DNA from: Abditibacteriaceae bacterium
GTDB lineage: Bacteria > Armatimonadota > Abditibacteriia > Abditibacteriales > Abditibacteriaceae
NCBI GenBank assembly: GCA_031425655.1
Contig: JANPJS010000222.1
Location: forward strand, 1 to 51,652
Length of the DNA: 51,652 nt
Direction: 5' to 3'
Shown: piece by piece, positions 433-19,616 of the stretch
Layout: each line of letters opens with the position of its first letter
Numbering within the stretch: position 1 is the stretch's first letter
Position numbers and translations under genes: made by a program
The notes under the pieces: generated by a model
Databases searched by the model: none
What the model was told of the DNA's origin: nothing
Seen by the model: the letters and a program-made list of their open reading frames with translations, nothing else

Positions 433-478
433 AATCCGCCATTTCGCGGATGGTTCAGCGTGTTCGCGGCTCTAAAAT
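433..478 (+). promoter_or_regulatory. Palindromic activator box plus -10 element (TAAAAT 473-478)
   Basis: AATCCGCCATTTCGCGGATG at 433-452; 21 nt between the 18-bp core and the -10; the same geometry recurs at four other promoters. Confidence 0.7.
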
Positions 479-517
479 GCCATACGAAGCAGATGTAAAA
501 GCGAAGGTGACAAGACG

Positions 518-874
518 ATGAAGACAATTCTTCTGGTCGAAGACGACCGCCAGTGCGGATTGCTTTACGAGGAAGAGCTGAGCGAGTCCGGTTATCGCGT
601 ATTGCGCGCGATGGATGGGCCGCAGGCGTTGCAACTAATGCAGCAGAAACCGGATCTGGTTGTGCTCGACATCAATTTGCCGGGCATGAACGGGCTGGAA
701 GTGATGGGAAAGCTGTTGGCTGAAGATCCCCGGCTGCCGGTCATTCTCAACTCAGCTTATGGCGCCTATCAAGACGATTTTCTGAGTTGGGCGGCGAATG
801 CTTACGTCATCAAGAGCAGTGATTTGAGCGAGTTGAAATCACAAATCTCTGAGGCATTGACTGGGATTTCTTAA
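518..874 (+). CDS. Single-domain (CheY-like) response regulator
   Basis: 118 aa; ILLVEDD, LVVLD(INLPGMNG), and YVIKS receiver motifs; RBS gaaggtga. Confidence 0.92.
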   Translation: MKTILLVEDDRQCGLLYEEELSESGYRVLRAMDGPQALQLMQQKPDLVVLDINLPGMNGLEVMGKLLAEDPRLPVILNSAYGAYQDDFLSWAANAYVIKSSDLSELKSQISEALTGIS

Positions 875-969
875 GAATCAGTCTGAAAAGTCCTGCCGTT
901 TTGCCACTCCAGATGTCTCGCCCCTGCCCGGAGGGCGCCCGCTCGACATGACACTTTTCAGACTGCTTT
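875..969. mobile_element. MITE-like element inserted at the TAA stop of the response regulator
   Basis: Sub-terminal inverted repeat agtctgaaaagt/acttttcagact 5 nt inside each end, flanked by TAA on both sides; contains a half REP with the 19-bp insert (923-941). Confidence 0.7.
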
Positions 970-1127
970 TAAAACCGGCCCGTCCACGACTGGGCCAAAG
1001 GCAGGCGAAACGCGGCGCTTTTGAGGCGGCATGAATTTTATCCGGTATTCGGCTCCGTGGCGGAGCAAATCGTGCGATGGCGGCCCAAATAGATTCGATT
1101 AAATAGGTTCGATCAAGAGGAAAGACT

Positions 1128-2195
1128 ATGTTTGAAACCGGCATCAACCCCTGGCACATCACGGAACTGGATTTTCTCACGGAGCGATCTCAATCCGACA
1201 AGCTGCGCTTTCTTTTGAACTACGCGGTGCTGGCGCCTTCGGGGCACAACACGCAGCCGTGGCTGTTTCGTGTCGGCGAGGACTGGGTTGAGATTCATGC
1301 CGACAAGTCGCGCGCCCTGCCGGTGATTGATCCGGGCCACCGCGAACTCATCATGAGCTGCGGCGCGGCTCTGCTTAATCTGCGCCTCGCGCTGCGGCAC
1401 TTCGGCTACCAGCCTCGGATAGAATTGCTGCCCGACTCTGTTCAGCCCGACTTAATGGCGCGCGTTCTCGTGGGCGATAACGCGGCGGCGACGGCTGAAG
1501 AAGACTCGCTTTTTGCGATGATTCCGCACCGGCGCACCAACCGTCAGGCTTTCGCGGATCGCCCTGTGCCGCCTTCGCTGCTGGCCGAACTGCAAGCGGC
1601 AGCGTCGGCAGAAGGCGCCTGGCTTCATATTGTCGAGAGCGCCGCTGCGCGGCGATTAGTGGCCGATTTGATCACTGTCGGCGACTATCTGCAAGGCAAG
1701 GACTTAGAATTTCGCCGCGAATTGGAAGCGTGCATTCGTCCGGCGCGCAGCAGTGAGCGCGAGGGCATCCCGACCTATGCGCTGGGCGAGGGCGGCGCTC
1801 CTGCCTACGTCGCGCCGCTGTCAGCCTCCGGGCACCTGTCAGTCTCCGGCCACAGCGACGGCGCCGAAGATAGCCAGGTAGCGGCGGGCTTACCGGTTTT
1901 AGCCGTTATGGGCACTGAAGCGAACCATCCGCGCGACTGGCTGCTGGCGGGACAGGCTTTGGAGCGTGTGCTGCTGCGAGCGCGGGCCGATGAAGTGTGG
2001 GCCTCGTTCTTGAATCATCCTGTCGAAGTCGCTGGCTTATGGCCGGAGTTGCGCGGCATCACCGGACGCGGCGGTTTTCCGCAATTCCTGTTGCGCTTCG
2101 GCTATGCGGCTGACTCCGCTGTGCCACAGCCGACACCACGCCGCACAGTGGATGAGGTGATAATTGATTACAAGCTATTTCAAAAGCTGTTTTAG
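1128..2195 (+). CDS. Acg-family FMN-binding nitroreductase-like protein
   Basis: AVLAPSGHNTQPW, SCGAALLNL, RRTNR and PTPRR motifs typical of Acg/Rv2032/Rv3131-type proteins. Confidence 0.9.
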   Translation: MFETGINPWHITELDFLTERSQSDKLRFLLNYAVLAPSGHNTQPWLFRVGEDWVEIHADKSRALPVIDPGHRELIMSCGAALLNLRLALRHFGYQPRIELLPDSVQPDLMARVLVGDNAAATAEEDSLFAMIPHRRTNRQAFADRPVPPSLLAELQAAASAEGAWLHIVESAAARRLVADLITVGDYLQGKDLEFRRELEACIRPARSSEREGIPTYALGEGGAPAYVAPLSASGHLSVSGHSDGAEDSQVAAGLPVLAVMGTEANHPRDWLLAGQALERVLLRARADEVWASFLNHPVEVAGLWPELRGITGRGGFPQFLLRFGYAADSAVPQPTPRRTVDEVIIDYKLFQKLF

Positions 2196-2299
2196 ATGAA
2201 TTTTGCCTCGCACGGCGACCCCCAAACCCCCTTACTAAGGGGGCTGGGGGTCGCCTCAGGCGCGCTTTTCCTCTATTATCCGACTTTTGAAATAGTCTG
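2171..2299. mobile_element. MITE-like element overlapping the 3' end of the nitroreductase
   Basis: ctatttcaaaag (2175-2186) / cttttgaaatag (2284-2295) inverted repeat, TA flanks, internal GC hairpin ggcgacccc...ggggtcgcc. Confidence 0.65.
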
Positions 2300-2315
2300 T
2301 AGGGAAGATTACGCG

Positions 2316-2357: not shown

Positions 2358-2393
2358 GGTTCTTAAGTTTTAAAACGACTGTTCAAACGCTTT

Positions 2394-3515
2394 TTAAGGG
2401 CTTTGGCGCCCGCTGCGGGAGCGCCGAAGATGCTCGGCCAGCGAGTGCAGAGTGATGTTGCAGGTCGTGACATCTTCGGCAGCGCGGCGCGCGGTTGGCG
2501 TGGCATCTTCGCTGGGGTAGCCTAAGCGGAACATCAATCGAGGATAGCCGGAACGCCCGACGATTTCACGCAAAGACGGACGCAATTGGCCGATTTCAAT
2601 CGGGCCGTTGAAGAAGCTGGCCGAGATTCCCGCCGCACTCGCACAAAGCAGCACACGCGCTAACGACTGGCCGGCACCAAGCCAATCGCGCGGGCCGTCC
2701 AAATCGCTGCCCAGCACAGCCAAAACCGGCGCGCTGCCGGCCAGCAGCCAATCTTTGTCAGCCTGGCTTTCACTCACGTTCAACAGCGGCAACGCGACGG
2801 GCGCCACACGCGAAGCCAGATTTCCCATGCCCAATGCATCGCCGGGAATGCCGTCGGCGCTTTTGCTTTGATGCGGGCGAATCCAGCTTGCGTGTTCACG
2901 TCGAAATTCGCGCTCGTGCCACTGCATGACATCGCCTTGTGCGACAAGCTCAATGAGCGCGGTGCGCTTCAGTGAGCTTTCGATTAAATGCAGCCACGCG
3001 CCCTCGCGCGCCGCTTCCTCGCACAGCTTGACCTGTAGGCTGGTGGGAATCGGCGTGTTCAAAAACAGGCTGCGGTTGGTATGGCGCTGGGCGATGGCCT
3101 CAAATAACAGTTCGGATTCGTTGTCAGGCGCACGCGGTTCGCCGAGCGTGACGCGCGCCAGTAAATCCGGGTCGGGCCGCATATTCTTCGCGCCGGGCAG
3201 CAGTTCCACCTGATCGGCGTAGCCAAAGTGCCTGATCGCCAACCGCAGGTGCAGCAGCGCCGCACCGCAGCCGATGATAAGTTCACTGCCGTGCGGATCG
3301 GAAATCGGCAAAGCGCGATTGCGGTCGGCAAAAAGGTCGGCGTGCCCGTCCGAGACTTCCCAAATCCACGGCTGTGCGTTGTGGCTCGACGGCGCCAAAA
3401 CCGCGTAGCGCAGCAGGAAACGCAACTTTTCATTATCGCCGGCGGCCTCTGGAAATTGCGCCTGCCAATCGAGCCATGTTTGGGGATCAAGCGTGACAGC
3501 TTTTGAATTGCTCAT
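2394..3515 (-). CDS. Acg-family FMN-binding nitroreductase-like protein (paralogue)
   Basis: AVLAPSSHNAQPW, GCGAALLHL and RHTNR motifs; start moved to ATG 3515 (RBS ggag, removes overlap with the USP gene). Confidence 0.9.
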   Translation of the reverse strand: MSNSKAVTLDPQTWLDWQAQFPEAAGDNEKLRFLLRYAVLAPSSHNAQPWIWEVSDGHADLFADRNRALPISDPHGSELIIGCGAALLHLRLAIRHFGYADQVELLPGAKNMRPDPDLLARVTLGEPRAPDNESELLFEAIAQRHTNRSLFLNTPIPTSLQVKLCEEAAREGAWLHLIESSLKRTALIELVAQGDVMQWHEREFRREHASWIRPHQSKSADGIPGDALGMGNLASRVAPVALPLLNVSESQADKDWLLAGSAPVLAVLGSDLDGPRDWLGAGQSLARVLLCASAAGISASFFNGPIEIGQLRPSLREIVGRSGYPRLMFRLGYPSEDATPTARRAAEDVTTCNITLHSLAEHLRRSRSGRQSP

Positions 3516-3552
3516 TGTCTCCACTTCCCTTTGCACGAAGTTCGCAGCGGCT

Positions 3553-4098
3553 TCAATCTCCGTCCAGATACAATGCGCGGCTGGTCGCGTGGACAACTTC
3601 AAATTCGGGACGCAGTGCCGCCGGGTTAATCGGAGTGTCGCTGTTTTTTGGTGCCTCTTCGTGCGTGCGATTCACCGTCATCACCGGGCAGGGCGCGATT
3701 TGCAGCACGCGCGTTGCCACACTGCCCAATTCACCGGGCTGCAAGCCGCCGGCGCCGTGCGTGGTCAGCACAATCAAATCGGCGCCTTCTTCGCGTGCGG
3801 CGCGCATGATTTGCTCGGCGGTTTCCCCTTGTTTCAAAAGGGGCCGCGTCCGCACATGGGACGGCACCCGCTCCTCCAAAACGGCGCACAAGTTCTTGAC
3901 GGTTTCGGCGCGGCGGTCGGCTTCCGAATGCGCGTCCGGTGCGTAACCGGCTAAGGGCGTCAGCGCGCTGGGCGAGGGTTCGACGTGCAGCACGCAAATC
4001 TCCGTTGCACCTTTGCCGGCCAGTTTGATGGCTTGGCGTAGCCCTTCGTAAGAAGCCTCGCTGAAATCAGTCGGGCACAGAATTTTTTGGAATGTCAT
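3553..4098 (-). CDS. Universal stress protein (UspA family)
   Basis: FQKILCPTDFS, ADLIVLTTHG, LGSVATRVL..APCPV motifs; start moved to ATG 4098 (RBS aaggtga). Confidence 0.92.
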   Translation of the reverse strand: MTFQKILCPTDFSEASYEGLRQAIKLAGKGATEICVLHVEPSPSALTPLAGYAPDAHSEADRRAETVKNLCAVLEERVPSHVRTRPLLKQGETAEQIMRAAREEGADLIVLTTHGAGGLQPGELGSVATRVLQIAPCPVMTVNRTHEEAPKNSDTPINPAALRPEFEVVHATSRALYLDGD

Positions 4099-4147: not shown

Positions 4148-4193
4148 ATTTTGCGTTTTGAAGGGTGATGCCACATCCGCGAAACGGCGGATT
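4148..4193 (-). promoter_or_regulatory. Palindromic activator box plus -10 (CAAAAT) for the usp-acg operon
   Basis: Minus strand AATCCGCCGTTTCGCGGATG (4193-4174), 21-nt spacer, CAAAAT (4153-4148). Confidence 0.7.
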
Positions 4194-4206: not shown

Positions 4207-4299
4207 AGGATGAGGGATGAAGGCGGAAGGATGAAAATCGGCGTTGCGCGCCGTCGGAGTGCGCGCCGAAGGCGCCTTCATCCCTCATCCCTCATCCCT
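4207..4299. repeat. Heptamer-based palindromic intergenic repeat
   Basis: aggatgagggatgaaggcg ... cgccttcatccctcatccctcatccct, directly after the kinase stop. Confidence 0.7.
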
Positions 4300-5596
4300 C
4301 TGCATTGCCGTTCCCCGGCAGATGAAAAACGAAGCTGGTGCCTTGTCCTTCTTCGCTTTCCACTTCGATATGCCCGCCGTGTTCGCCAATAATCTGCTGC
4401 GTGACGGTTAATCCCAGGCCGGTGCCGTGTTCGCGGTGTGTCACAAACGGCGTCCAGATTCCGGGCAATTTATCGCTTGCGATGCCTTTGCCGGTGTCGG
4501 CGATGGTGATGACGATTTCATCGTCATTACGGCGTGTCGAGAGGGTTAGCGTGCCGCCATCGGGCATGGCCTGCATGGCGTTGCGCGTCACGTTGAGAAA
4601 GGCGCGCAAGAGCGCCGAAGTGTTCATGCAAAGCAGCGGCAGCGCCGGAGCGTAATCCTTGCGCAGAACAATGTTGTGCTTGTCCCAATCGCCGCAGGCC
4701 AGCAGACAGGCGCGGTCGAGAACCTCGTGCAGATTGCCACTGGTTTTAGGCGCATCGCGCGGACGCGATAAATCCAGCAAATCGTTGAGCAACTCTTCCA
4801 ATCGCCCGATTTCCGAGGCGATGATTCCGGCGCGATGCCGCACTTTTTCCGCATCGTCGGGATGACGCGCCAAAGAGTGCGCGTAACCGCCCAACGTCAC
4901 CAGAGGATTGCGAATTTCATGTGAAACGTGCGCCACCATCTTGCCTACCGCAGCTAAAGTTTCGGCGCGTCCCAACTCGTCCTGCGCTTGACGCAAGTCA
5001 TCGGAGGAAGCACGCAGGCGGCGCAGCAAAAGCGCTTGGTAGCCGAAGACGAACGCCGCGCCGTAAAGCACGCAGCCTTCGACGATAACGTCCACGGGAC
5101 GCAGTTCTACGCCGGCCACGCGGTGCGACCACAACAATGCCAAGACGTAAAACGGCGTGAAGGCCAAAGCCGCCAAAAGACCGCCTCGCATCGAAAAGAA
5201 AAACGCCCCAGCCAAAACCGGCGTAAGCGCGTAGAAAAAGAATGGCGATGTGGCGCCGCCGGTCAGGGCCATTAAAGTCGCGCCGAAGGCCATATCCACG
5301 CCGAGCAGCAACGGCTGGCGCAACACGCGCCGGTCGAGTTTTTCGTGGGCTAAGCTCAACGCCAAATTCGCCGCGACCGCAACGGCGAAAATCTCCCACC
5401 ACAAAAGCCCCGACGTGAGCGCGCCCGGTTGCCACCAGACCACTAAAAGGGGCGGCAACAAACTCAGCCAACGCGCGCCGATCAAAAAGAGAAAGCCGTT
5501 TTCTTCGTGAATTACGCGCGCCAGCCAACGCCGCACGAGCGAGACTCGCTTGCCAATGGCAAGCGGCTCCGCTGAATTGATTGGCGTTAGTCTCAT
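4292..5596 (-). CDS. Membrane-bound sensor histidine kinase (HisKA + HATPase_c)
   Basis: About 5-6 hydrophobic N-terminal segments; H-box VSHEIRNPL, N-box NVTRNAMQA, DTGKGI and GTGLGL. Confidence 0.92.
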   Translation of the reverse strand: MRLTPINSAEPLAIGKRVSLVRRWLARVIHEENGFLFLIGARWLSLLPPLLVVWWQPGALTSGLLWWEIFAVAVAANLALSLAHEKLDRRVLRQPLLLGVDMAFGATLMALTGGATSPFFFYALTPVLAGAFFFSMRGGLLAALAFTPFYVLALLWSHRVAGVELRPVDVIVEGCVLYGAAFVFGYQALLLRRLRASSDDLRQAQDELGRAETLAAVGKMVAHVSHEIRNPLVTLGGYAHSLARHPDDAEKVRHRAGIIASEIGRLEELLNDLLDLSRPRDAPKTSGNLHEVLDRACLLACGDWDKHNIVLRKDYAPALPLLCMNTSALLRAFLNVTRNAMQAMPDGGTLTLSTRRNDDEIVITIADTGKGIASDKLPGIWTPFVTHREHGTGLGLTVTQQIIGEHGGHIEVESEEGQGTSFVFHLPGNGNAEG

Positions 5597-5632
5597 GGTT
5601 GTCCAGAGTTTAACGACTGAGCAGCGAGGCGC

Positions 5633-7531
5633 TTAGCCTGCCTCGACCGGCTCATCGAAGGGCACGTCCTCAAACTGATAACGCAGCATGACTTCACCGC
5701 CGATGGAAGTGGTCGTATCAGCGCGGCCCAGCACTTTCTCGAAAACGTGGCGCATCGGCGCGTTTTCTTGCAAAACCTGCGCGACGACGCCGGCAAAGCC
5801 GTTTTCGCGCGCGGCGTCGGTCAGCAATCGCAGCAAATGCTGCGCGATGCCCATCTTGCGATAATCCTCGTGAACCACAAAGGCGACTTCGGCCACGCGC
5901 GCCTCGGCATGGCCTTCATAGCGTCCGACGGCGACTATTTTTTCCGCGCCCGGCTCGCCGATTAAACCGACAATCGCCAACCGTGTGCGATAGTTGATCT
6001 GCACCAAATCGCTGGCGCGCTGATGCGGCATGGCTCGCGCGTAATAACCGTAACGCCCGCGAATGGTTTCCTCGTCGTGCGAATAAAAGAAGTCCTGCAA
6101 TAATCGCTCGTCCGAAGCGCGAATGGGCCGAAAGAAAATCGCCGTATCGCCGCGCTGCGGGTGCTGAAAAGTCTGCGTGTGTTCCAAACGCGCCGGATAA
6201 AAATGGCCTTGAAAACGCCGCAAATCGCCGTAAACGTAGCGGCGTTCTTTGGCCGCATCGAGCAGTTCGTTGCGAAAATCGGGATGCGCGATCTCCATTA
6301 AAGCCCTTGCGCGCTCGCCGACGCTTTTGCCGTGCAGCGATGCGATGCCGTATTCCGTGACGACATAATGCACGTCGCCCCGGCTTGTCACCACGCCCGA
6401 ACCTTCTTCCAGCGCCGCCACGATGCGCGATACTTTACCGCTTTGCGCCGTTGACGGCAGCGCGATAATCGGGCGTCCGCGCTTCGATTTGGCGGCGCCG
6501 CGCATGAAATCCACCTGCCCGCCGATGCCCGAATAAAAGCGGCTGCCCATGCTGTCGGCGCACACTTGTCCGGTCAAGTCAACCGCGATGGCCGAATTGA
6601 TCGCCACCATGTCGTCGTTGAGGCGAATCACGCCCGGATCGTTGGTGTAATCCGATGGATAAAACCCAACGTGCGGGTTTTCATCCACCCAATCGTAAAG
6701 CGCGCGTGTGCCCATGCAAAACGAAGTCACGATTTGCTGGCGATGCAGCGTTTTACGCTTGCCGTTGACCACGCCGCGCGCCACCAGTTCCATCAGGCCG
6801 TCAGAGAACATTTCGGTATGAACACCGAGATCGTTTTTCTGATGTAAATGCGACAAAACCGCGTTGGGAATGGCGCCGATGCCCATTTGCAGCGTGGCGC
6901 CATCCTTAACTAAACGCGCGACGTGCGCGCCGATTTGCCCGGCGATTTCCAGCGCGGCAGCATTGGGCGCTTCAAAACGCACTTCGCGCAAGGGTTCTTC
7001 GGCTTCGATGAGGCAGTCAATTTCGCTGATATGCACAAACGAATCGCCGAAAGTGCGCGGCATCAAGCGATTGACCTGCGCGATGACCAAACGCGCGCTT
7101 TGCGTCGCCGCCTTGACAATATCCACGCTGACGCCAAGCGAGCAAAAGCCCTGCGCGTCGGGCGGCGTGACTTGAATCAAAGCCGCGTCCAGCGGCATCG
7201 GGCCGGAAGTTAGCAGCGCGGGGATTTCCGACAGAAAAATCGGCGTGTAATCGGCGCGTCCGTCCTGCACCGCTTCGCGCACATTGGCGCCGATGAAAAA
7301 CGCATTGTGGCGAAAGTTATCGGCATATTCGGGCCGCACATAAGCCGCTTCGCCTTGCGTGAGAATGTGAATAATCGGGTTGTCGGCGAAGAAATGCGCG
7401 TGTTCAATCAAGCCGCGCGTGAGTGTGCCCGGCTCGGCGCAGCCCGACCCAATGAAAATGCGTCCGCCGCGCCGGATGCGCTTCAAAGCCGCTTCGACCG
7501 TCGTCAACTTCTTTTCGTATTCACTTCGCAT
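5633..7531 (-). CDS. Acetyl-CoA hydrolase/CoA-transferase (4-hydroxybutyrate CoA-transferase-like) fused to a C-terminal GNAT domain
   Basis: TLQMGIGAIP, GVHTEMFSDG (catalytic Glu), SGIGGQVDFMRGA and VVTEYG motifs; C-terminal AEVAFVV..DYRKMGIA GNAT motif A; start moved to ATG 7531 (RBS aaggag). Confidence 0.9.
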   Translation of the reverse strand: MRSEYEKKLTTVEAALKRIRRGGRIFIGSGCAEPGTLTRGLIEHAHFFADNPIIHILTQGEAAYVRPEYADNFRHNAFFIGANVREAVQDGRADYTPIFLSEIPALLTSGPMPLDAALIQVTPPDAQGFCSLGVSVDIVKAATQSARLVIAQVNRLMPRTFGDSFVHISEIDCLIEAEEPLREVRFEAPNAAALEIAGQIGAHVARLVKDGATLQMGIGAIPNAVLSHLHQKNDLGVHTEMFSDGLMELVARGVVNGKRKTLHRQQIVTSFCMGTRALYDWVDENPHVGFYPSDYTNDPGVIRLNDDMVAINSAIAVDLTGQVCADSMGSRFYSGIGGQVDFMRGAAKSKRGRPIIALPSTAQSGKVSRIVAALEEGSGVVTSRGDVHYVVTEYGIASLHGKSVGERARALMEIAHPDFRNELLDAAKERRYVYGDLRRFQGHFYPARLEHTQTFQHPQRGDTAIFFRPIRASDERLLQDFFYSHDEETIRGRYGYYARAMPHQRASDLVQINYRTRLAIVGLIGEPGAEKIVAVGRYEGHAEARVAEVAFVVHEDYRKMGIAQHLLRLLTDAARENGFAGVVAQVLQENAPMRHVFEKVLGRADTTTSIGGEVMLRYQFEDVPFDEPVEAG

Positions 7532-7541
7532 AACGAACTCC

Positions 7542-7652
7542 TTTAAACACAAAGATCACAAAGATTTGCACAAAGAATCACAAAGATTTGAAAAGGTTTT
7601 TTCAAGAGCTTTTGTGTTCTTTGTGCGATCTTTTGTGTTCTTTGTGTTTAAA
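7542..7652. repeat. Palindromic repeat built from cacaaag/ctttgtg units
   Basis: tttaaacacaaaga...tctttgtgtttaaa with four cacaaag units in the left arm and matching tttgtg units in the right arm. Confidence 0.8.
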
Positions 7653-7661
7653 CGTTTCTTT

Positions 7662-9320
7662 TCACCGGCAGAAAATTACTAAAATCTGCGCGGCCACGAT
7701 GCGCGCAATCATCACTATCGGGTAAACCGTCGCGTAAGTCACGGTGGGCGCGTCGGAATCCGTAGTGCTGTGCGCGAAAGCCAAAGCCGGCGGATCGGTC
7801 ATGCTGCCCGCCAGCAAGCCGCACAAACTCGGAAACGGCATTTTCATCACGAAACGAGCGACCAGCGCCGCCAAAACCAGCGGAACAAGCGTGATGAGCG
7901 AAGCTAAGGCCATCCAACGCCAACCGTCACCTTGCAGCAAAGTCGGCACGAAGTTGTCACCGGCTTTGAGACCAACACAGGCCAAAAACAAGATGATGCC
8001 GGTTTCGCGCAGCGCCGCACCCGCCGCCGGCGGCATATGCCAGACCAAAGGCCCGATGCGCCCGACGCGACTGAGCAAAATAGCGGCGAGCAGTGGCCCG
8101 CCGGCCAGCCCCAGCTTCACCGGCGCGGGAAAGCCCGGAAGGGCAAGTGGATAGCTGCCGAGCAGCACTCCCAGCGAGATGCCCAAGAATATCGCCGCCA
8201 TCGAAGGATGTTCCAGTTCCTTCGCCGAATCGCCGATTTCGCGCGCGGCTTCATCCAGCGCCGGCGGTGAACCGACAGTTAAGATTCTGTCGCCGAATTG
8301 CAGGCCCAAATCCGAGCGCGGCGGCAGTTGCACCCCGGCGCGATTGATGCGCGTGACCACCACACCAAAGCGCCCGGCCCAGTTCAGTTGATGAATACTT
8401 TTGCCCAAAATGGCGCGCTGAGTGACGATCAGGCTGCGCGTGGTGACTTCGCCCGGAGCTTCGCGCAAGTCCACCGGCGACTCCTCGCCGACGATGAGAC
8501 GAAATTCTTCCAATTCTTCTTTTGGCCCGACGGCGAGCAAAACGTCGCCGGTTTCAAGGCGCGTATCGCCGCGCGCCACTTCGACATTCCCATCATGCTG
8601 CACACGCGAAATCACCACGCCCGAATCTTTGAGTCGCGGCAGTTGGCGAATCGGCAGGCCGTTTAAATTCGCGTTGGTGACTTCGAGATTCAGCGTTTCC
8701 AGCGCGGCTTCACGGGGCGGCAGCGATGGTTCGACTTCGCGCACCATATCCGCGCGAAAGGCGCGCCGCGTCACGAGCATGGTGAGAATAATGCCCAGCA
8801 CGCCGAACGGATAAGCCACCGCGTAGCCCAAGCCGGGCATTTTTGCCATGTTCTCGGTTGCGCCCGGCAGTTCTTTCAACGCTTGTTGCGCGGCGGCCAG
8901 CGACGGCGTATTCGTGGTGCCGCCGGAAAATAAACCCACCGCGACGGGCATTGGCACGCCACCGAAGCGGCTCACGGCCACAGTGACCAAAACGCCGCAA
9001 ACCACGATGCCAAGCGCCAAACCATTGAGCGCCAACCCCTGCCGGCGCAGGCTGCTGAAAAAGCCCGGCCCGACTTGCACGCCGATGGCGTAAACGAAAA
9101 GAATCAGGCCAAATTCGCGTGCGAAGTCGAGAGTTTCATGCGAAAGCGTTAAGCCGAAATGCCCGAAGGTCAAACCCGCGAACAGCACACCGGCGATGCC
9201 CAGTTCGACACTTTTAATGCGAAGACTGCCCAGTCCTAAACCGCAAACCGCGACCAGACCAAGCACTAAAACCGCGTGCGCCACTGAATCTTCGATGAAC
9301 AAATCTTTGAGCCATTCCAT
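7662..9320 (-). CDS. AspT/YidE/YbjL-family transporter with two TrkA-C domains
   Basis: GLILFVYAIGVQVGPGFF, GGTTNTPSLAAA, GSMTDPPALAF and YATVYP motifs; start moved to ATG 9320. Confidence 0.9.
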   Translation of the reverse strand: MEWLKDLFIEDSVAHAVLVLGLVAVCGLGLGSLRIKSVELGIAGVLFAGLTFGHFGLTLSHETLDFAREFGLILFVYAIGVQVGPGFFSSLRRQGLALNGLALGIVVCGVLVTVAVSRFGGVPMPVAVGLFSGGTTNTPSLAAAQQALKELPGATENMAKMPGLGYAVAYPFGVLGIILTMLVTRRAFRADMVREVEPSLPPREAALETLNLEVTNANLNGLPIRQLPRLKDSGVVISRVQHDGNVEVARGDTRLETGDVLLAVGPKEELEEFRLIVGEESPVDLREAPGEVTTRSLIVTQRAILGKSIHQLNWAGRFGVVVTRINRAGVQLPPRSDLGLQFGDRILTVGSPPALDEAAREIGDSAKELEHPSMAAIFLGISLGVLLGSYPLALPGFPAPVKLGLAGGPLLAAILLSRVGRIGPLVWHMPPAAGAALRETGIILFLACVGLKAGDNFVPTLLQGDGWRWMALASLITLVPLVLAALVARFVMKMPFPSLCGLLAGSMTDPPALAFAHSTTDSDAPTVTYATVYPIVMIARIVAAQILVIFCR

Positions 9321-9338: not shown

Positions 9339-9384
9339 ATTCTGCCGCGCACGAGCCTCGAATGCATCCGCCAAACGGCGGATT
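9339..9384 (-). promoter_or_regulatory. Palindromic activator box plus -10 (CAGAAT) for the transporter operon
   Basis: Minus strand AATCCGCCGTTTGGCGGATG (9384-9365), 21-nt spacer, CAGAAT (9344-9339). Confidence 0.7.
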
Positions 9385-10336: not shown

Positions 10337-11158
10337 TTAGGCGCTTTCCTCGGAAGCGGCTAAAGATAAAGCACGCGGGAAAATCACGTCTTCTTCGATG
10401 CTGAGGTGGCGTGCGATGGCGGTTTCGAGTTCGCCTAAATCATGCGCCAGCACGCGATAAGTGTTGCAAACGCCCGAAGGCGGCTGAAAATGATTGATCC
10501 AGCCGCGCAGCATTTTCAACGAAGCGCGCAGCATGATGTTTTCCGAATGCTGATGGCAAATCGAGCGCAGCAGGCTAATGGAGTAAGACAAGTCGCGCTT
10601 ACTTTCCGTCGCATCGGCGCCGGAAGTTTCGAGACATTTCAAAACCGGAAACAACGCGGTTTCTTCGCGCGTGATGTGACTTTCGATCTGCTCTTTCAAA
10701 TCCTCGAACAGCCCCTGCATCTCCCAAAACTCGGAAAACGCCGCGCCGTGATCGTCGGCCACGCGATCTACCAAATACGATAAACGCGGTATTTCATCGC
10801 GCAGAAATTGATGCGGGCCTTGCACAATGGCCTCAATCTGCTCCGAAAGCGAAGCGTGCGACCAATCAAAAGCTTCTTCGCTCGGCAACGCATCCGTCCT
10901 CGCGTCGCAGGCGCGCAAGTCGGACAAAACAGCTTCTGCGTCCACATCCTGTTCGCGGCACGCTTGCGCGACGGTGTGTTGGCCACAGCAATAACTCAAA
11001 CCCCATTTTTCAAACACGCGCGCCCTCGCCGGACGCTCGGCCACCATCTGCGCGACGGTTTCCTCGTGCCTCATCGCGGCCTGCCCGCTAATCACGATCA
11101 GCTGCCCGGCGGCGCGGCTGCTCTTCAAAGCGAAAAAATTTATCAGATGTTTCCTCAT
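10337..11158 (-). CDS. Ric/YtfE/ScdA-like di-iron protein (DUF542 + hemerythrin)
   Basis: GLSYCCG N-terminal motif; H, HxxxEE..LFP, H and HxxxE..IFP ligand pattern. Start uncertain (ATG 11158 or 11074). Confidence 0.85.
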   Translation of the reverse strand: MRKHLINFFALKSSRAAGQLIVISGQAAMRHEETVAQMVAERPARARVFEKWGLSYCCGQHTVAQACREQDVDAEAVLSDLRACDARTDALPSEEAFDWSHASLSEQIEAIVQGPHQFLRDEIPRLSYLVDRVADDHGAAFSEFWEMQGLFEDLKEQIESHITREETALFPVLKCLETSGADATESKRDLSYSISLLRSICHQHSENIMLRASLKMLRGWINHFQPPSGVCNTYRVLAHDLGELETAIARHLSIEEDVIFPRALSLAASEESA

Positions 11159-11165: not shown

Positions 11166-11211
11166 AGTCTGCCGCCACGCGGGGCGGGTTTCATCGGCGA
11201 AACGGCGGATT
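11166..11211 (-). promoter_or_regulatory. Palindromic activator box plus -10 (CAGACT) for the Ric-like gene
   Basis: Minus strand AATCCGCCGTTTCGCCGATG (11211-11192), 21-nt spacer, CAGACT (11171-11166). Confidence 0.68.
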
Positions 11212-11219: not shown

Positions 11220-11702
11220 TTAGCCGAAGTAATCGGATTCCCGATAAAGCAGTGGAGGCCGGTCGTGTGTTGCGGAGTTGATAACTTCGCCGATAAAAAG
11301 TGAACACAATCCTAAATCGTGGACTGCGATTAAGCGGCATTCGAGATAGGCGCTGCAGTCTTTAAGAATCGGTGCGCCGGTGAGTGCGGTTTCGCATTCC
11401 AGAGCGGCGAACTTGTTGACATCGCGTCCGGTTCGCAACCCGAAATGGCCGCCCAACATTTCCTGTCCCTGCGCCAAGACGTTGACCACAAAGGCTTTGC
11501 TTTCGCAGATGAAATCGTGCGTGTAGCGCCGTTTGGCGATGGACAGCGCCACGCACGGCGGGCGCAGCGAAACCTGACTGACCATGCGCAGCGTGAGGGC
11601 GTTGATCTCGTCGCCGCGCCGTGCGCTGACCACGTAAACGCCGTAACTCAGGCGACGCAAAGCCGCGCGATTCTGGTGAGAGGAAGCCGGTGGCGTGTTC
11701 AT
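11220..11702 (-). CDS. Flavin reductase family protein (FlaRed/DIM6-NTAB)
   Basis: YGVYVVS, QVSLRPP, FVVNVL, G+..GR.VNKF, GAPIL, LECR and LFIGEV motifs; 4-nt overlap with the regulator gene. Confidence 0.88.
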   Translation of the reverse strand: MNTPPASSHQNRAALRRLSYGVYVVSARRGDEINALTLRMVSQVSLRPPCVALSIAKRRYTHDFICESKAFVVNVLAQGQEMLGGHFGLRTGRDVNKFAALECETALTGAPILKDCSAYLECRLIAVHDLGLCSLFIGEVINSATHDRPPLLYRESDYFG

Positions 11703-12376
11703 GGTGCTTTGTCCACAGGCTCAGCTGCTGCCAGCCCGTGTCGCGCCGCCCAAACCGCCGCCTGCACGCGGTCGGAAACGCCCAGTTTGTGGATGATATG
11801 CTCGACGTGGGTTTTGACGGTGCTTTCGGAAATGAACAAGAGCGGCGCGATTTCTTTGTTGGACAGCCCGGTTGAAAGCAGGCGCAGCACTTCGATTTCG
11901 CGCTCGGAAAGCGGCTGGATCAAATCTTTCGCGAGCGCCGCGCTTTGGCTGACGCCGCGCAAAATGCGCGCTAAATCTTTAGCTTCGAGCAGCGTTTCGC
12001 CGCCCGCGACTTTACGAAGCGCATCCAATAACTCGTCGCGCTCAACGCCTTTAAGGACGTAACCCGCCGCGCCGCCCGCGACGGCGCGAGCCATGTAAGT
12101 CGGATTGTCGTAAGTCGTCAGCATCACGACCGAAGTGCCGGGATTTTGCGCTTTGATGACGCCAAGTGCATCCAATCCGTCGCCGCCGGCCATGCGAATA
12201 TCCAGCAAAACCAAACGCGGCTCCAGTTCGCGCACCCGTTCGGCACCTTCCGGCCCGGACGAGGCTTCGCCGACAACATAAAACTCGGTGTCGTCCAACA
12301 TACTTTTCACGCCGCCGCGCCAGATGGCGTGATCGTCCACCAGCAGCACGGTGATTTTAGCAGAAGTTTCGCTCAT
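11699..12376 (-). CDS. NarL/LuxR-family response regulator (DosR/DevR-like context)
   Basis: REC (LLVDDH, LLDIRM, GYVLK) plus LuxR HTH (LSEREIEVL..GLSNKEIA..LFISESTVKTHV). Confidence 0.93.
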   Translation of the reverse strand: MSETSAKITVLLVDDHAIWRGGVKSMLDDTEFYVVGEASSGPEGAERVRELEPRLVLLDIRMAGGDGLDALGVIKAQNPGTSVVMLTTYDNPTYMARAVAGGAAGYVLKGVERDELLDALRKVAGGETLLEAKDLARILRGVSQSAALAKDLIQPLSEREIEVLRLLSTGLSNKEIAPLLFISESTVKTHVEHIIHKLGVSDRVQAAVWAARHGLAAAEPVDKAP

Positions 12377-13956
12377 GAATTTTCACTTTCTTCCTGTGGC
12401 GCGAGAGCCACAAAGCGAGCGCGCAGCGTGGTGCCGACGCCCGGCGCTGAGTGCAATTCAAGGCTTCCGCCCAATAAATGCACACGCTCGATGATGCCCT
12501 GCAAACCAACGTGGCCGGATGCGCCGATGCGCTCTCTGGTGTTGAAGCCGATGCCCCAGTCGCGCATTTCAAAGCACAGTTGTTCGCCGCTCTGCAGCAG
12601 TTTCATTTGCACGCGCGGCGTTTGGGCGTGGCGTCGCGCATTGGTGAGAGCTTCCTGCGCGATGCGATAAACGCCGGTTTCCAGCGTGCGGTCAAAACGC
12701 GCATCGCCGATGTTGTCAACGAAATCGGCTGCTTGCCAGGCGGCTCGTGCCTTTTCTTCTTGTAAAAGTTGCTCAAGCGCGCCGGTGAGTCCTAAATCGT
12801 CCAAAGCCAACAAACGCAGGCCATTGACCAAGCGGCGCGATTCGACAACCGCTTCTTTGAGATATTGCAAGCCCTGCTCTAATTCGCGCGCGGCTTTGTC
12901 TTCTCTGCCGGTCGCGTGGGCGCGCTTAAAGGCTTCCAAATGCGCGTGAGAAGCCATCACAAACTGCGTCAGGCCGTCGTGCAAATCGTAAGCGACGGCG
13001 CGGCGCTCTTCTTCCTGCGCGGCGATGAGGCTGGAAACCAAAGAACGCTGCTGCGCCAGCAACTGCAGATTATGAATCGCCACCGCCGCGTGCGCGCCCA
13101 AAGCCTGCACCGCCACTTCGTCGGCTTCGGTAAACACGCCGCCGCCCTGCTTGTTGGTCAGGTAAAGACTGCCCACTACCACGTCGCCGCGACGAATCGG
13201 CACGCCTAAAAACGAATCCATCGGCGGATGATGATCGGGAAAGCCAACCGAAGCCGGATGCTCGCTGAGGGTGTCAATGCGAAGCGGCTCACTGCGTTCA
13301 AGCAGCAAACCAAGAATGCCGCGACCGCGCGGCAACGGGCCGATGACGGCTTCTTCTTCCGGTGTCAGGCCGACCGTGATGAACTGCTTCAAACCGCCGC
13401 CATCCTCGCGTGCCACGCCCAGCGCTGCGTAACGCGCGCCGGCCAAAACGCGCGCGGCGTCGGCGATGTGGCGCAGGGCTTCAGCCCCGGTGCGGCTGGT
13501 AAGAATATCCAGTGCAACGCGATTGGCGGCTTCCATCACGACGGCGCGATGGCGCGCTCCAGCTTCCATTTCCAGCACGGCGCGTTCGGCCTGACGGCGC
13601 TCGGAAATGTTACGCATCAGAGCCAAAGCGCCTGAAACGGCGCTGCTTCCGTCGCGCAGCGGCGTGAGCGACATTTGCACGTCTAAGCGGCTGCCGTCTT
13701 GCGTCACGCGCACGGTTTCAAAGCGCCCGACGGCCTCGCCTGCTGCGATATGGCGCGCGATTTCGCGGCTTTCGCGCGCCACTTCGGGCGGCGATAAAAC
13801 TTCCAGCGCTTGCCCGATGATTTCGTCGGCGCTGTAGCCGAAAATTTCGGTTGCGCTGCGGTTCCAACTCGCAATCGCGCCCTCCGTCGTCACGCCGATA
13901 ATGGCGTCGTCGCAGGCTTCTAAAAGGGCTGCCAGTTGCTGAGCGTGCTGTCCCAT
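12373..13956 (-). CDS. PAS + GAF sensor histidine kinase (HisKA_3), DosS/DevS-like
   Basis: N-terminal PAS; GAF with EHPASVGFPDHHPPMDSFLGVPI and GSLYLT; EERRAVAYDLHD H-box; QEALTNARRHA; GLQGIIERV. Confidence 0.9.
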   Translation of the reverse strand: MGQHAQQLAALLEACDDAIIGVTTEGAIASWNRSATEIFGYSADEIIGQALEVLSPPEVARESREIARHIAAGEAVGRFETVRVTQDGSRLDVQMSLTPLRDGSSAVSGALALMRNISERRQAERAVLEMEAGARHRAVVMEAANRVALDILTSRTGAEALRHIADAARVLAGARYAALGVAREDGGGLKQFITVGLTPEEEAVIGPLPRGRGILGLLLERSEPLRIDTLSEHPASVGFPDHHPPMDSFLGVPIRRGDVVVGSLYLTNKQGGGVFTEADEVAVQALGAHAAVAIHNLQLLAQQRSLVSSLIAAQEEERRAVAYDLHDGLTQFVMASHAHLEAFKRAHATGREDKAARELEQGLQYLKEAVVESRRLVNGLRLLALDDLGLTGALEQLLQEEKARAAWQAADFVDNIGDARFDRTLETGVYRIAQEALTNARRHAQTPRVQMKLLQSGEQLCFEMRDWGIGFNTRERIGASGHVGLQGIIERVHLLGGSLELHSAPGVGTTLRARFVALAPQEESENS

Positions 13957-15783
13957 TTACATTTCCCAGTGTTCGGGCGAGCGCCACAAGCTCGACAAAG
14001 TCAAGTCGCGCACGCTGAGCAATTCTTTAGGCAAGCGGTCGTAGAGGCGAATAAACAGTTCCTCGTGCGAGAGGATTTCTGCGTTCCACTCTGCGCGGTC
14101 AACGGCCATTAAATCATTGAAGCGCCGACGATCAAAGTCTTCCATGCCGCTCCAGTCCAAGTCTTCATAACGCGGCATCCAGCCAATCGGCCCTTCGATG
14201 CTGACGGCGTGGCCATTGGCGCGCTCGACGATCCATTTCAGCACGCGCATATTTTCGCCGAAGCCGGGCCACAGAAACTTGCCTTCGTCGTCGGTGCGAA
14301 ACCAGTTCACGGTAAAGATGCGCGGAGGGTTGGGAATCGCGCGTCCAAATTGCAGCCAGTGACTGAAGTAATCGCCCATATGATAGCCGCAAAACGGCAG
14401 CATCGCAAACGGATCGCGCCGCACAACGCCGGTTTTGCCGGCAGCGGCAGCCGTAGTTTCGCTGCCCATCGTGGCCGCCGAATATACGCCGTAAGTCCAG
14501 TTAAACGCCTGATAAACAAGGGGCATCAAGGTGCTGCGCCGACCGCCGAAAACAAAGGCTTTAATCGGCACGCCCTGCGGGTTTTCCCACTCGGCGTCAA
14601 TCGAAGGACACTGCGAAACTGGCGCCGTAAAACGCGCGTTGGGATGCGCGGCTTTGCGTCCGGAGTCGGGCGTCCAGTCCTGTCCTTTCCAGTCTTTTAG
14701 ATGAGCGGGCTTTTCCTGCGTCATGCCGTCCCACCACACGTCGCCGTCATCGGTCAGCGCCACATTCGTGAAAATCGTGTTGGCGCGCAGCGATTCCATG
14801 GCGTTCGGATTCGTTTCATAAGAAGTGCCGGGCGCCACGCCGAAATAACCGGCTTCGGGATTAATCGCGTAAAGCTTGCCGTCCTCGCCCGGCTTAATCC
14901 ACGCGATGTCGTCGCCGACCGTCGTCACTTTCCAGCCTTCCATGCTTTCGGGCGGAACCAGCATAGCGAAGTTGGTTTTGCCGCACGCGCTGGGAAAAGC
15001 CGCCGCAACGTAGGTCTTCTCGCCCTGCGGCGACTCGACGCCCAAAATCAGCATATGCTCGGCCAGCCAGCCTTGATCGCGCGCCATATTGGACGCGATA
15101 CGCAAGGCAAAGCATTTTTTGCCCAACAGCGCGTTACCGCCATAACCGCTGCCGTAGCTCCAAATGGCGCGCTCTTCGGGAAAATGCACGATGTATTTTC
15201 GCGCCTTGTTGCACGGCCACGGCACGTCTGTCTGCCCTTCTTCGAGCGGCATTCCAACGGAGTGTAGGCAGGGAATGAATTCGCCGCCTTCGCCCAGCAC
15301 ATCCAAAACCGCGCGGCCCATGCGCGTCATGATTTTCATGTTAACCGCGACGTAAGGCGAATCGCTCAGCTCAACGCCAATGTGCGCTATCGGCGAGCCG
15401 AGCGGCCCCATCGAAAAAGGGATCACATACATCGTGCGTCCCTTCATGCAGCCGTCGAACAAGCGCGTCAGCGTCTCCTTCATTTCGCGCGGAGCTACCC
15501 AGTTGTTAGTCGGGCCGGCGCCGGCCTTGCTGACGCTGCAAATGAAAGTCTGGTCTTCGACACGCGCGACATCATCAGGATCGGAACGCGCCAAAAAGCT
15601 GTTCGGACGCAGCGCGTCGTTCAAGCGCACAAATGTCCCGCTTTCCACCAGTTGATCGCACAAGCGGTCGTATTCTTCAGGAGAGCCGTCGCACCAATAA
15701 ACGGCATCGGGGTGGCAAAGCGCCGCCATTTCCTGCACCCATTGAATCAGCGCGGCATGGCGAACGTAAATCGGGGTGTCCAT
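13957..15783 (-). CDS. pckG: Phosphoenolpyruvate carboxykinase (GTP)
   Basis: [49 protein letters not shown] and [11 protein letters not shown] motifs. Confidence 0.97.
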
Positions 15784-15824: not shown

Positions 15825-15870
15825 AGTGTGTTCTGCGTCGTTACGAATTCCATCCGCTATCCGGCGGATT
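15825..15870 (-). promoter_or_regulatory. Palindromic activator box plus -10 (CACACT) for the pckG-kinase-regulator operon
   Basis: Minus strand AATCCGCCGGATAGCGGATG (15870-15851), 21-nt spacer, CACACT (15830-15825). Confidence 0.7.
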
Positions 15871-16397: not shown

Positions 16398-16427
16398 TTG
16401 ACATCCAGTTTAGCACACCCCTATAAT
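16398..16427 (+). promoter_or_regulatory. Sigma70 consensus promoter for the hmp operon
   Basis: TTGACA (16398-16403), 18 nt, TATAAT (16422-16427). Confidence 0.85.
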
Positions 16428-16434
16428 TCCCCTT

Positions 16435-16456
16435 AATTAGACATATTTGTCCGATT
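16435..16456. promoter_or_regulatory. Probable Rrf2 operator
   Basis: Imperfect palindrome AATTAGACA-TATT-TGTCCGATT immediately downstream of the predicted start site, in the divergent intergenic region. Confidence 0.6.
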
Positions 16457-16488
16457 TCTATATTTCATAGAAAAAAGAGAGAAAAACC

Positions 16489-16881: not shown

Positions 16882-17333
16882 TGCTGCTGACAGCATTTTG
16901 CTTTGTGTGGGCGGGCATGGTGCTGGGCATTTCGTTTCTGGAAACGCCGGTTAAATTCACCGCGCCCAGCGTGACTTTGCCGATTGGCTTAGATGTCGGG
17001 CGCCATGTTTTTGGCGTTTTCAACAAAGTCGAAATCGCTGCGGCGCTACTGATCTGTGGCTTGTTAATCGGGATGCGCCCGCAGCGCGTGGTTTGGCTGC
17101 CGTTAGCTTTCGTTGCGCTCGTTGTGGCGCTGCAAAGCGTGTGGCTGCTGCCCGTTCTCGATGCTCGCGTCGGGATGATTTTAGCCCGCCAAATACCGCC
17201 TCCCGCGCCGTATCACATTGTTTATGTCGGGCTGGAGTTCTTGAAATTAACGTGCCTTCTGGTGGCCGGCGCGTTGTGCTTAAAAACTCCTGATTTTCGC
17301 CGTGCAACGCCGTTTGCCACCAAAGAAAATTAA
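16878..17333 (+). CDS. Conserved four-helix membrane protein of unknown function
   Basis: GISFLETPVKF.AP, GR.VF..FN..E, WLLP.LD.R and H..YV..E..K motifs; four hydrophobic segments; ATGA coupling to the cupin gene. Confidence 0.8.
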   Translation: MMLLTAFCFVWAGMVLGISFLETPVKFTAPSVTLPIGLDVGRHVFGVFNKVEIAAALLICGLLIGMRPQRVVWLPLAFVALVVALQSVWLLPVLDARVGMILARQIPPPAPYHIVYVGLEFLKLTCLLVAGALCLKTPDFRRATPFATKEN

Positions 17334-17347
17334 TGGAGCCTTGAATT

Positions 17348-18550: not shown

Positions 18551-18575
18551 TTGAAAACGCAACGGAGCCTTGCTG

Positions 18576-19253
18576 ATGCCTCAAGAAATTCCTGAATCTG
18601 CTGTTATTGATGTGCGCTCAATTCCCAAGCCGCAGCGCCATCCGTTGATTTTCGACGCGCTCGAAAAGTTGGCGGTCGGGGAAAGCCTCGTCGTGTTGAA
18701 CGATCACAATCCGATTCCACTGCGCGGGCAGGTCGAAGCCATTTACCACGCGCAGTTTGAGTGGCGCTATCTGGAAGAAGGGCCGGACGAATTTCGCCTT
18801 CAATTCACGCGCCGCGAGCCGGCTCCGCATGGTTTCAAGCGTCCTGAATCGAAGAAAAACCGCTTGAGAATGGCCCCGCCGAGTATTGCGCCAGCTAAGC
18901 CGTCGCCGGTGCGGGTGAATTTATTGGAAGCCTGCCGCGCGGCGCATTCCGGCCCGCAATGGGCGCACGAATGCGACGACCTCGACATGACGCTGCTATC
19001 GTGGGAAAGCGGCAGGCGCATCGAAACGCACGTTAATAACGAAGTGGATGTCGTGTGCCTCGGCGTTGAAGGCAGCGGAATCGTGACCGTTAACGGTGCA
19101 GCCCACGAAGTGCGGCCTGGAGTTCTCCTACTGATTCCCAAAGGCTGCGAACGCGCTGTCGAAAGCACGTCCGAGCGGTTCACTTATCTCAGCGTGCATC
19201 AGCGGCGGCGCGGCCTGATGCCGACTTTCAAGGGTAAACCGCTTACAAATTGA
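18576..19253 (+). CDS. DUF2249 + cupin fusion protein
   Basis: IDVR.IP..RHPLIF, NDHNP.PL, F.W.YLEEGP N-terminal domain; C-terminal H.NNEVDV...G.G.VTVNG cupin. Confidence 0.8.
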   Translation: MPQEIPESAVIDVRSIPKPQRHPLIFDALEKLAVGESLVVLNDHNPIPLRGQVEAIYHAQFEWRYLEEGPDEFRLQFTRREPAPHGFKRPESKKNRLRMAPPSIAPAKPSPVRVNLLEACRAAHSGPQWAHECDDLDMTLLSWESGRRIETHVNNEVDVVCLGVEGSGIVTVNGAAHEVRPGVLLLIPKGCERAVESTSERFTYLSVHQRRRGLMPTFKGKPLTN

Positions 19254-19265
19254 CGAGGAAAGTTT

Positions 19266-19514
19266 ATGACTTACGTTATCGCGGAACCATGCATTGACGT
19301 GAAAGACAAAGCGTGCGTCGAGGTTTGTCCGGTGGATTGCATCCACGAGGCTGAAGACGGCACCTCGCCGCAGCTTTACATCAACCCCAGCGAGTGTATT
19401 GATTGCGGAGCCTGCGAACCGGAATGTCCTGTCGAGGCGATTTTTGAGGAATCAGCCTTGCCCGCTGAATGGAAGCATTACACCCAAATCAACGCTGATT
19501 TTTATGCCGAGTGA
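19266..19514 (+). CDS. 7Fe-type ferredoxin (FdxA/FdxC-like)
   Basis: [25 protein letters not shown] ... [17 protein letters not shown]. Confidence 0.95.
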
Positions 19515-19569
19515 TGTGCTTGCACGCGTCCCATTGGCATGAATGAAAAGCCGTTGTATCCAGCTACAG

Positions 19570-19616
19570 AATCCGCCAAAAAGCGGAGGCGCAGGGAGTA
19601 ACTCGTGTTGGACACT
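19570..19616 (+). promoter_or_regulatory. Variant activator box upstream of the molybdoenzyme operon
   Basis: AATCCGCCAAAAAGCGGAGG (19570-19589), with GACACT (19611-19616) after a 22-nt spacer. Confidence 0.45.

Follow-up and report, generated by a model that had tools for sequence, protein, structure and literature searches.

A 51,652-nucleotide stretch of DNA from an Abditibacteriaceae bacterium (the window), which is contig C222 of a 97% complete, 5.98-Mb genome (G000), carries six copies of a 20-bp dyad, each located upstream of a -10-like hexamer at a nearly fixed distance. These boxes are almost certainly a genuine operator, and this operator is very probably read by the NarL/LuxR-family response regulator encoded within the same cluster at 11699-12376. 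The explanation that we favour with good confidence for the whole system is that a DosT-like heme kinase signals to this NarL-type regulator, which would activate promoters with a single box when oxygen is low. The boxes are distributed as follows:

Box 1, 433..452, + strand; -10-like TAAAAT at 473-478; upstream of a stand-alone receiver (518-874) and acg (1128-2195)
Box 2, 4174..4193, - strand; -10-like CAAAAT at 4148-4153; upstream of usp (start ~4098) and a second acg gene
Box 3, 9365..9384, - strand; -10-like CAGAAT at 9339-9344; upstream of an AspT/YidE transporter, a CoA-transferase-GNAT protein and a HisKA kinase
Box 4, 11192..11211, - strand; -10-like CAGACT at 11166-11171; upstream of a ric-like di-iron gene (start ~11074)
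Box 5, 15851..15870, - strand; -10-like CACACT at 15825-15830; upstream of pckG, the sensor kinase, the regulator and a flavin reductase
Box 6 (the weakest), 19570..19589, + strand; -10-like GACACT at 19611-19616; upstream of a membrane protein and a NasC-like nitrate reductase operon

All six 20-mers are present with the letters, coordinates and strands given in a first-pass annotation of the window, which had also described their fixed spacing: in five of them 21 nt separate the 18-bp core from the hexamer (20 nt when counted from the 20-mer), the sixth having one base more. They lie between genes, as had likewise been claimed, once over-long open reading frame (ORF) calls are shortened, on visual judgement, to their probable starts (usp 4098, transporter 9320, ric 11074, pckG 15783 and receiver 518). 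A position weight matrix (PWM) scan of the genome and its relatives, suggested beforehand as a check, places the six boxes on top in the genome and finds the box again around relatives of the regulator. With a PWM built from the six boxes, they occupy ranks 1-6 of the 5.98-Mb genome, all within 19.2 kb (433-19589). When each box is left out of the matrix in turn, equal or better matches outside the cluster number 0 for five of them and 42 for box 6 (19570), which is therefore weak when taken alone; box 6 is also backed by a locus of the same genus (L021), in which a box stands ahead of a NarK/nitrate-reductase operon. An independent model of box plus -10, trained on other loci only, with L021 omitted, and applied at a threshold of at least 17 bits, gives 12 matches in the genome, where the window boxes hold ranks 1-5 and 9, and one match in the reversed genome. 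Of the other six matches, one lies on contig C149 and two lie on C143, the last three being weak, and nothing besides the six boxes scores at least 10 with a model of this kind in the window.

The match on C149 (14035-14080, locus L193) is likely a seventh box with its -10, ahead of a gene cluster that ends in an HlyD/CusB-type efflux gene, and HlyD genes also lie behind boxes in L057, L230 and L236. Divergent from box 3, positions 9419-9982 encode a Uma2-family putative endonuclease, and no -10 is found on that side.

The regulator family is almost confined to Armatimonadota (80 loci). The closest named relative of the regulator, with 89% identity, belongs to an Abditibacteriaceae metagenome-assembled genome; the nearest relatives of the genome as a whole are Abditibacteriaceae (Armatimonadota). 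The 80 loci kept out of 109 around relatives of the regulator span 1.1 Mb, in which the window PWM yields 133 strand-hits in 54 loci, with 0-3 in Markov controls, and a refined PWM yields 143 sites in 63 loci, with 1-2 in order-3 Markov controls. The consensus of these 143 sites, AATCCGCC(A/G)TTTNGCGGATG, supports a dyad AATCCGCCA-NN-TGGCGGAT(G) whose predicted geometry is that of NarL/DosR-family sites and not that of a CRP-type site. The hexamer NANNNT follows at a gap of 20 nt in 101 of the 143 sites and of 21 nt in 37, the remaining gaps between 10 and 35 nt giving 0-23, and on the opposite side of the box it occurs in at most 13 sites at any gap; its consensus is TATAAT/TACAAT. If the +1 is assumed to lie 7 nt after the hexamer, the dyad centre falls at -42.5 (gap 20) or -43.5 (gap 21), which fits the class II activator geometry near -42 proposed for the window. 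The dyad is symmetric except at its ends, where position 20 is G in 109/143 sites and symmetry would need T; T3, G14 and G17 are invariant. At gap 20, the closing TG may take the place that TG would have in a TTGACA -35 at a spacer of 17 nt, but the next three bases are not conserved. Density inside coding sequence had been named beforehand as a result that would speak against an operator; the sites are depleted there, since only 19 of 138 lie within the 3' three quarters of crude ORF calls, where 68% would be expected. Finally, no conserved tandem second box appears 18-69 nt upstream in 138 sites (four sites at most at any offset), although very degenerate ones could escape this search.

The proposed reader and its kinase are encoded in the operon behind box 5, which contains:

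13957..15783, - strand; pckG, GTP-dependent phosphoenolpyruvate carboxykinase (PEPCK), first gene of the putatively autoregulated operon
12373..13956, - strand; sensor kinase, PAS-GAF-HisKA_3-HATPase
13048..13479, - strand; DosT/DosS GAF-A-like heme domain of the kinase, residues 160-303, with His243, Tyr265 and Gly180 (roles by alignment)
11699..12376, - strand; NarL/LuxR-family response regulator, proposed box reader
11801..11824, - strand; recognition helix of the regulator, residues 185-192, with S185, K188, T189 and E192
11220..11702, - strand; flavin reductase-like gene, last in the operon

That this regulator binds the box, as the first-pass annotation had put forward, is supported by their co-occurrence and by the covariation of recognition helix and box. 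Co-occurrence was assessed in 301 genomes of at least 80% completeness with a strict box-plus--10 pattern, anchored on the -10 because the plain palindrome ATCCGC-N6-GCGGAT without it matched 27 of 41 genomes and failed to distinguish those with the regulator from those without it. The regulator is found in 47 of the 301 genomes (46 plus G270, in which the gene is split over two contigs), and the mean number of strict matches per genome is 4.8 in these 47 versus 0.30 in the 254 negative genomes; at least four matches occur in 26/47 versus 1/254. No P value is attached to these figures because the genomes are kin and not independent. Six of the 47 score 0 by the strict pattern, which misses variant boxes, and each of them has a PWM or variant site near the regulator. 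Among 84 loci, the only near-universal gene clusters are the regulator (72) and the kinase (67), the former count being so by construction because the regulator was the anchor for collecting the loci.

Not every DosS-type GAF kinase predicts the box: nine loci of family f34 (L204-L211 and L216) pair such a kinase with a different NarL regulator and contain one weak box match (15.1 bits) in total. In these loci the kinase, of ~580-630 aa, lies beside a NarL regulator with the helix SVKTVETYRARI, three of the loci adjoin a radical SAM homologue, and no operator was found for them. A family kinase with an interrupted GAF match is encoded at G097:C79:8595-9161 (L217); the search for the regulator found none in this genome.

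Regarding the regulator itself, it is composed of PF00072 (REC) and PF00196 (GerE/LuxR helix-turn-helix) domains and matches NarL (1a04) with an E value of 1e-38, the NarL/VraR score (136 bits) exceeding that of DevR (123 bits). Its helix 9 reads S185-T-V-K188-T189-H-V-E192 and aligns with K179/K182/N183 of DosR and K188/V189/K192 of NarL, which are published base contacts (PMC4082495, PMC13486717 and PMC10853779; for these papers, as for PMC3177182, PMC5069765 and PMC5015018, statements refer to the accessible parts of the text). A pattern left open at the inner bases of the box retrieves 144 sites in 84 loci, with 8-22 in controls. In loci with S185/T189/E192, 83 right half-sites comprise CCGC (48), CCAC (12), CCCC (10) and CCTC (7), with 0 CACC and 0 CTGC. 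CACC is found in 7/8 sites of the four V192 loci, and CTGC in 16 of 27 sites of the G185/T189/E192 loci. Changes at two base-contact positions (S185G and E192V/S) hence track box variants. A variant box plus -10 is present in 5 of 27 family genomes, three of which have a V192 regulator and one an S192 regulator, the fifth being G000, with a matching heme-less kinase and a truncated regulator on C132. In a quick tree of the regulators, the combination of CTGC and G185 appears in several separate branches (the Armatimonas loci, the pilus-linked loci, L138/L139 and L092), with L041, L052 and L084 as exceptions to the pairing.

Several paralogues accompany these variants. In L061, L083 and L134 the kinases lack the heme His and Tyr and the box is of the AATCCCCC type, standing ahead of a cation-diffusion metal transporter gene in L061 and L134. 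L051, L070, L080 and L219 form a G185 group beside type IV pilus genes (T2SSE, T2SSF and pilin) with variant boxes, which suggests a redeployment to pilus control. In G000, C132:101-1706 (L192) encodes the second, heme-less paralogous kinase, whose regulator ends after ~residue 103, and C143:20693-20800 (L191) carries two identical variant boxes facing divergent usp/acg clusters; the system could have decayed or been misassembled, or the window regulator could cross-read these boxes.

From the side of the signal, the GAF domain of the kinase, which the first-pass annotation had not noticed, has as its best PDB match 2vzw (E 1.2e-38), which we take to be DosT GAF-A, and DevS GAF entries follow at 1e-34 to 1e-35. 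His243 aligns with the proximal His of the DosS/DosT GAF-A domains (H149/H147) and Tyr265 with their distal Tyr (Y171/Y169), so both residues of these sensors are present, and Gly180 aligns with DosT Gly85 and not with DosS Glu87; the Gly found in 2vzw at the position of DevS Glu87 fits the account of DosT in the same source (PMC4082495). All three residues are kept in 119/119 sequences (the best 119 of 3163 homologues). The PAS domain is absent from many orthologues, and many are GAF-only. The transmitter scores higher with VraS/DesK (E 7e-10 to 3e-7) than with the ATPase domains of DevS (4e-4) and DosT (0.36), but the PDB chains of the latter two are short fragments. DosS/DosT hemes bind O2, nitric oxide (NO) and carbon monoxide (CO) (PMC4082495). 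By analogy with these sensors, a heme-based activation by the kinase-regulator pair at low oxygen is a likely function.

The transcription units behind the other boxes of the window are:

Target unit 1, 518..2195, + strand; receiver-only protein (518-874) and Acg-family flavin mononucleotide (FMN) protein (1128-2195), putatively transcribed together
Target unit 2, 2394..4098, - strand; universal stress protein (Usp) and second Acg-family FMN protein
Target unit 3, 4292..9320, - strand; AspT/YidE transporter, acetyl-CoA hydrolase/transferase-GNAT and HisKA kinase
Target unit 4, 10337..11074, - strand; RIC/ScdA-like di-iron protein
Target unit 6, 19740..26239, + strand; membrane protein, NasC-like molybdoenzyme, 4Fe-4S protein, Rieske protein, DUF6755 and NarK-like MFS transporter

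The gene behind box 1, previously labelled a response regulator, is a stand-alone receiver domain without a DNA-binding part and is followed by the acg gene. In relatives, where operons behind boxes were delimited with crude ORF calls and Pfam was run on 89 representatives, Usp is found in 26 loci, a 78-aa four-cysteine protein in 27, the kinase in 15 and RIC-like proteins in 6; cytochrome bd subunit I, zinc-dependent alcohol dehydrogenase (ADH) and BON proteins appear in 5 loci each, phosphoketolase and phosphofructokinase (PFK) in 4 each, and acetate kinase, 2-hydroxyacid dehydrogenase, acyl-CoA synthetase, PEPCK, Acg, Hsp20 and a COX1-family oxidase are also represented. The autoactivation proposed for the regulator is supported by a box ahead of the kinase-regulator operon here and in 15 of the loci examined, but not in all of them. 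A scan of metagenomes for a near-consensus box plus -10 returned 65 stretches with 60 distinct sites; 45 of 57 downstream ORFs were compared with Pfam and include Usp, ADH, PFK, pyruvate:ferredoxin oxidoreductase (PFOR; 2), ATP synthase, Hsp20, BON, an S30AE ribosome-associated protein, an M50-CBS peptidase, rubrerythrin, Acg, sigma factors and HlyD, with 13 of the 45 lacking a Pfam family. The target set is one of microaerobic, fermentative and quiescent life and overlaps the DevR and OsdR regulons (PMC5069765 and PMC3177182), with the usp, acg/nitroreductase, nitrate and small heat-shock genes of DosR-type systems.

The 78-aa four-cysteine protein (L043:1748-1984 and homologues in 27 loci; CDGxxC ... 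WL ... HxCPxC) is usually the first gene behind the box directly after the regulator. It matches no Pfam family and only unnamed ESM Atlas clusters, and it was not found in G000; it is likely a zinc-ribbon core member of the regulon.

When compared with known systems, the pair shares with DosS/DosT-DosR (DevRS) a GAF of the heme type with proximal His and distal Tyr, a NarL-family regulator and, in addition to a predicted dyad centre close to that of DosR at hspX (-43.5; PMC13486717), usp, acg, nitrate genes and Hsp20 among the targets (PMC5069765). However, the DevR half-site is GGGACT and the consensus here is AATCCGCCA-NN-TGGCGGATG; Dev-box dyads with GGGAC(T) half-sites, searched with two patterns, have 0 matches in the genome. 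DosR K179/K182/N183 are replaced by S185/K188/T189, DevR promoters need at least two boxes (PMC3177182) whereas a single one is found here, and the tandem GAF-A/GAF-B of DosS/DosT contrasts with one GAF, often together with a PAS. Since neither the DosR contacts, box and tandem sites nor the DosS layout are retained, the sequence features best fit a low-oxygen regulon that is DosRS-like but uses a new operator of one box, and not DosR itself. The OsdK/OsdR pair of Streptomyces coelicolor also has a DosT-like kinase, autoregulation, a regulon clustered around the pair and targets of the same kinds (usp, nitroreductase, ADH, nitrate reductase and a hemerythrin protein), but OsdR is 61% identical to DevR, keeps the DevR DNA contacts and reads AGGGCCGATCGGCCCT (PMC5069765). 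The box described here is unrelated to it in sequence and belongs to another phylum.

A precedent is E. coli NarL at yeaR, where a single dimer occupies a 7-2-7 dyad centred at -43.5 and adjoining the upstream side of the -35, and the regulator shares with NarL K188 and H190 of helix 9, K174 being present as well (PMC10853779). The differences from NarL include V189T and K192E, other bases in the site and a soluble heme-GAF kinase in place of the membrane nitrate sensor NarX. Exact NarL 7-2-7 consensus dyads number 0 in the genome, and Dev-box dyads are equally absent, in agreement with the earlier statement that the box is unlike those of DosR and NarL. NreB/NreC, in which an Fe-S PAS oxygen sensor is coupled to a NarL-family regulator, similarly combines a soluble HisKA_3 kinase with a NarL-type activator of low-oxygen genes, but the PAS has no Cys cluster here and the conserved input is the heme GAF.

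According to the mechanism that we propose, the kinase (12373-13956) would bind heme in its DosT-type GAF domain and, as in DosS/DosT, would be inactive with O2 bound and active with a heme that is deoxy or carries NO or CO. Following phosphotransfer, a dimer of the phosphorylated regulator would bind one dyad AATCCGCCA-NN-TGGCGGAT(G) at about -42.5/-43.5, abutting the -35 position, and recruit the housekeeping RNA polymerase to promoters with a -10 but no full -35; recruitment is proposed because the NarL and DosR activation complexes sit at -43.5. This would induce Usp, Acg, RIC, nitrate reductase/NarK, PEPCK and CoA-transferase in this organism and, in relatives, energy functions (cytochrome bd, ADH, phosphoketolase/acetate kinase, PFK, 2-hydroxyacid dehydrogenase and PFOR) together with Hsp20, BON and a ribosome-hibernation factor.

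The NO detoxification genes of the window are arranged differently:

16489-19514; cupin-hmp-fdx operon, with its promoter region at 16398..16455 (+), outside the regulon
15902-16369; Rrf2 regulator gene, divergent from the cupin-hmp-fdx operon

The operon encodes a cupin, a 151-aa protein of no named family, a flavohemoglobin, a DUF2249-cupin and a ferredoxin. It lies inside the cluster but has no box; it has its own consensus sigma-70 promoter, TTGACA-18-TATAAT (16398-16427), and a candidate Rrf2 repressor dyad just downstream (~16434-16455), for which the accessible part of the RsrR paper prints no motif to compare. From this arrangement, NO detoxification is probably under separate repressor control. 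Of the hypoxia/NO regulon initially claimed, the hypoxia part is supported by the comparative evidence, while the NO part is weaker. NO may act through the kinase heme, as for DosS/DosT.

Alternative explanations concern the signal, the reader and the box itself. It is unlikely, although it deserves more weight than the others, that the same operator and reader respond mainly to NO/CO or to general redox or energy stress, including input through the PAS domain, instead of low oxygen. RIC, Acg, nitrate reductase/NarK and the adjacent hmp cluster would suit such a signal, as would the range of gases bound by DosS/DosT hemes, the extra PAS of many kinases and the heme-less paralogues that keep boxes. 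However, the hmp operon is boxless with its own promoter and candidate Rrf2 site, many orthologues lack the PAS, the targets throughout the phylum are microaerobic and fermentative (cytochrome bd, ADH, phosphoketolase, PFOR, PFK, Usp and Hsp20), and Gly180 is as in DosT, described with a stable oxy complex (PMC4082495). Less probable still is that another activator encoded elsewhere, for instance of the CRP/FNR family, reads the box and the two-component pair is just a member of the regulon. The 5-6-5 spacing of the core TCCGC-N6-GCGGA would be compatible with this and the targets resemble FNR-type regulons, but the box variants follow the base-contact residues of the regulator itself, all but one of the 254 regulator-negative genomes stay below four matches, and no other transcription factor is among the widely shared gene clusters of the 84 loci, CRP/FNR genes not having been searched genome-wide. 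As for a dispersed repeat, a terminator stem or another non-regulatory palindrome, which the short GC-rich inverted repeat and its frequent position directly behind a gene end (such as that of the regulator) might evoke, it is largely refuted and hardly worth entertaining: the -10 hexamer lies at a fixed distance on one side only, the flanks are unrelated, the genome holds only 12 matches, these precede the 5' ends of a coherent gene set, and box presence depends on regulator presence.

Some observations weigh against the explanation by a heme kinase and its NarL-type regulator. The 96% complete genome G280 (400 contigs) has nine strict matches, including sites before cydA and phosphoketolase, and neither the regulator nor the heme-GAF kinase was found in it, which also speaks for another reader; an assembly gap is a likely cause. 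At 15 bits, 17 of the 80 loci have no site. Five of these are from Planctomycetota and differ in the helix, several are on short contigs, and four (L036, L064, L081 and L093) are full 20-kb Armatimonadota loci whose E192 helix is intact. With regard to the covariation, L039/L041, L052 and L084 combine G185 with standard boxes and L078 combines V192 with a near-standard box, and the independent events are few because of the kinship of the genomes and because an unresolved fork of the quick tree holds both the V and the S clade. Lastly, the heme His or its loop is missing from two groups of orthologous kinases (L027/L073/L079/L082 and L061/L083/L134), which go with variant boxes, so that the box does not always serve oxygen sensing.

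Within the remainder of the window, the first gene of the nitrate-reductase-like operon (19740-20897) encodes a membrane protein of 385 aa that has CxxC...CxxC in its C-terminal part and matches nothing in Pfam or NCBIfam; it may be a membrane anchor subunit. Positions 26770-40822 are dense in GAF/PAS kinases, a hybrid kinase, and GGDEF and HD-GYP response regulators, and 40865-51394 encode two large DUF11/SdrD surface proteins; neither region has a box.

As to its origin, there is about an even chance that this Armatimonadota switch was assembled independently of the actinobacterial DosRS, from a DosT-type heme GAF, a different transmitter and regulator and a single-box operator, and that single substitutions in the recognition helix later gave rise to insulated paralogues: E192V accompanied by an ATCACCC box and by loss of the heme loop, and S185G accompanied by ATCTGCC boxes, one group of which is placed on type IV pilus genes. 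To our knowledge, Armatimonadota are known almost only from metagenomes. The accessible literature on Armatimonadota, DosS homologues and the motif contained no regulon or operator of this kind, although subscription papers, regulon databases and supplements may hold a prior prediction. If true, the system would offer a natural recognition code for NarL-family proteins and would be the first regulon defined for Armatimonadota in the literature searched. The paired variants of helix and box make DNA recognition by NarL-family proteins testable by single substitutions. The box is also a precise tool for reading the low-oxygen programme of this phylum from genomes, giving physiological context to genes such as that of the conserved 78-aa four-cysteine protein. 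It suggests a DosT-like heme switch in soil and freshwater members, which would serve survival under microaerobic conditions and quiescence.

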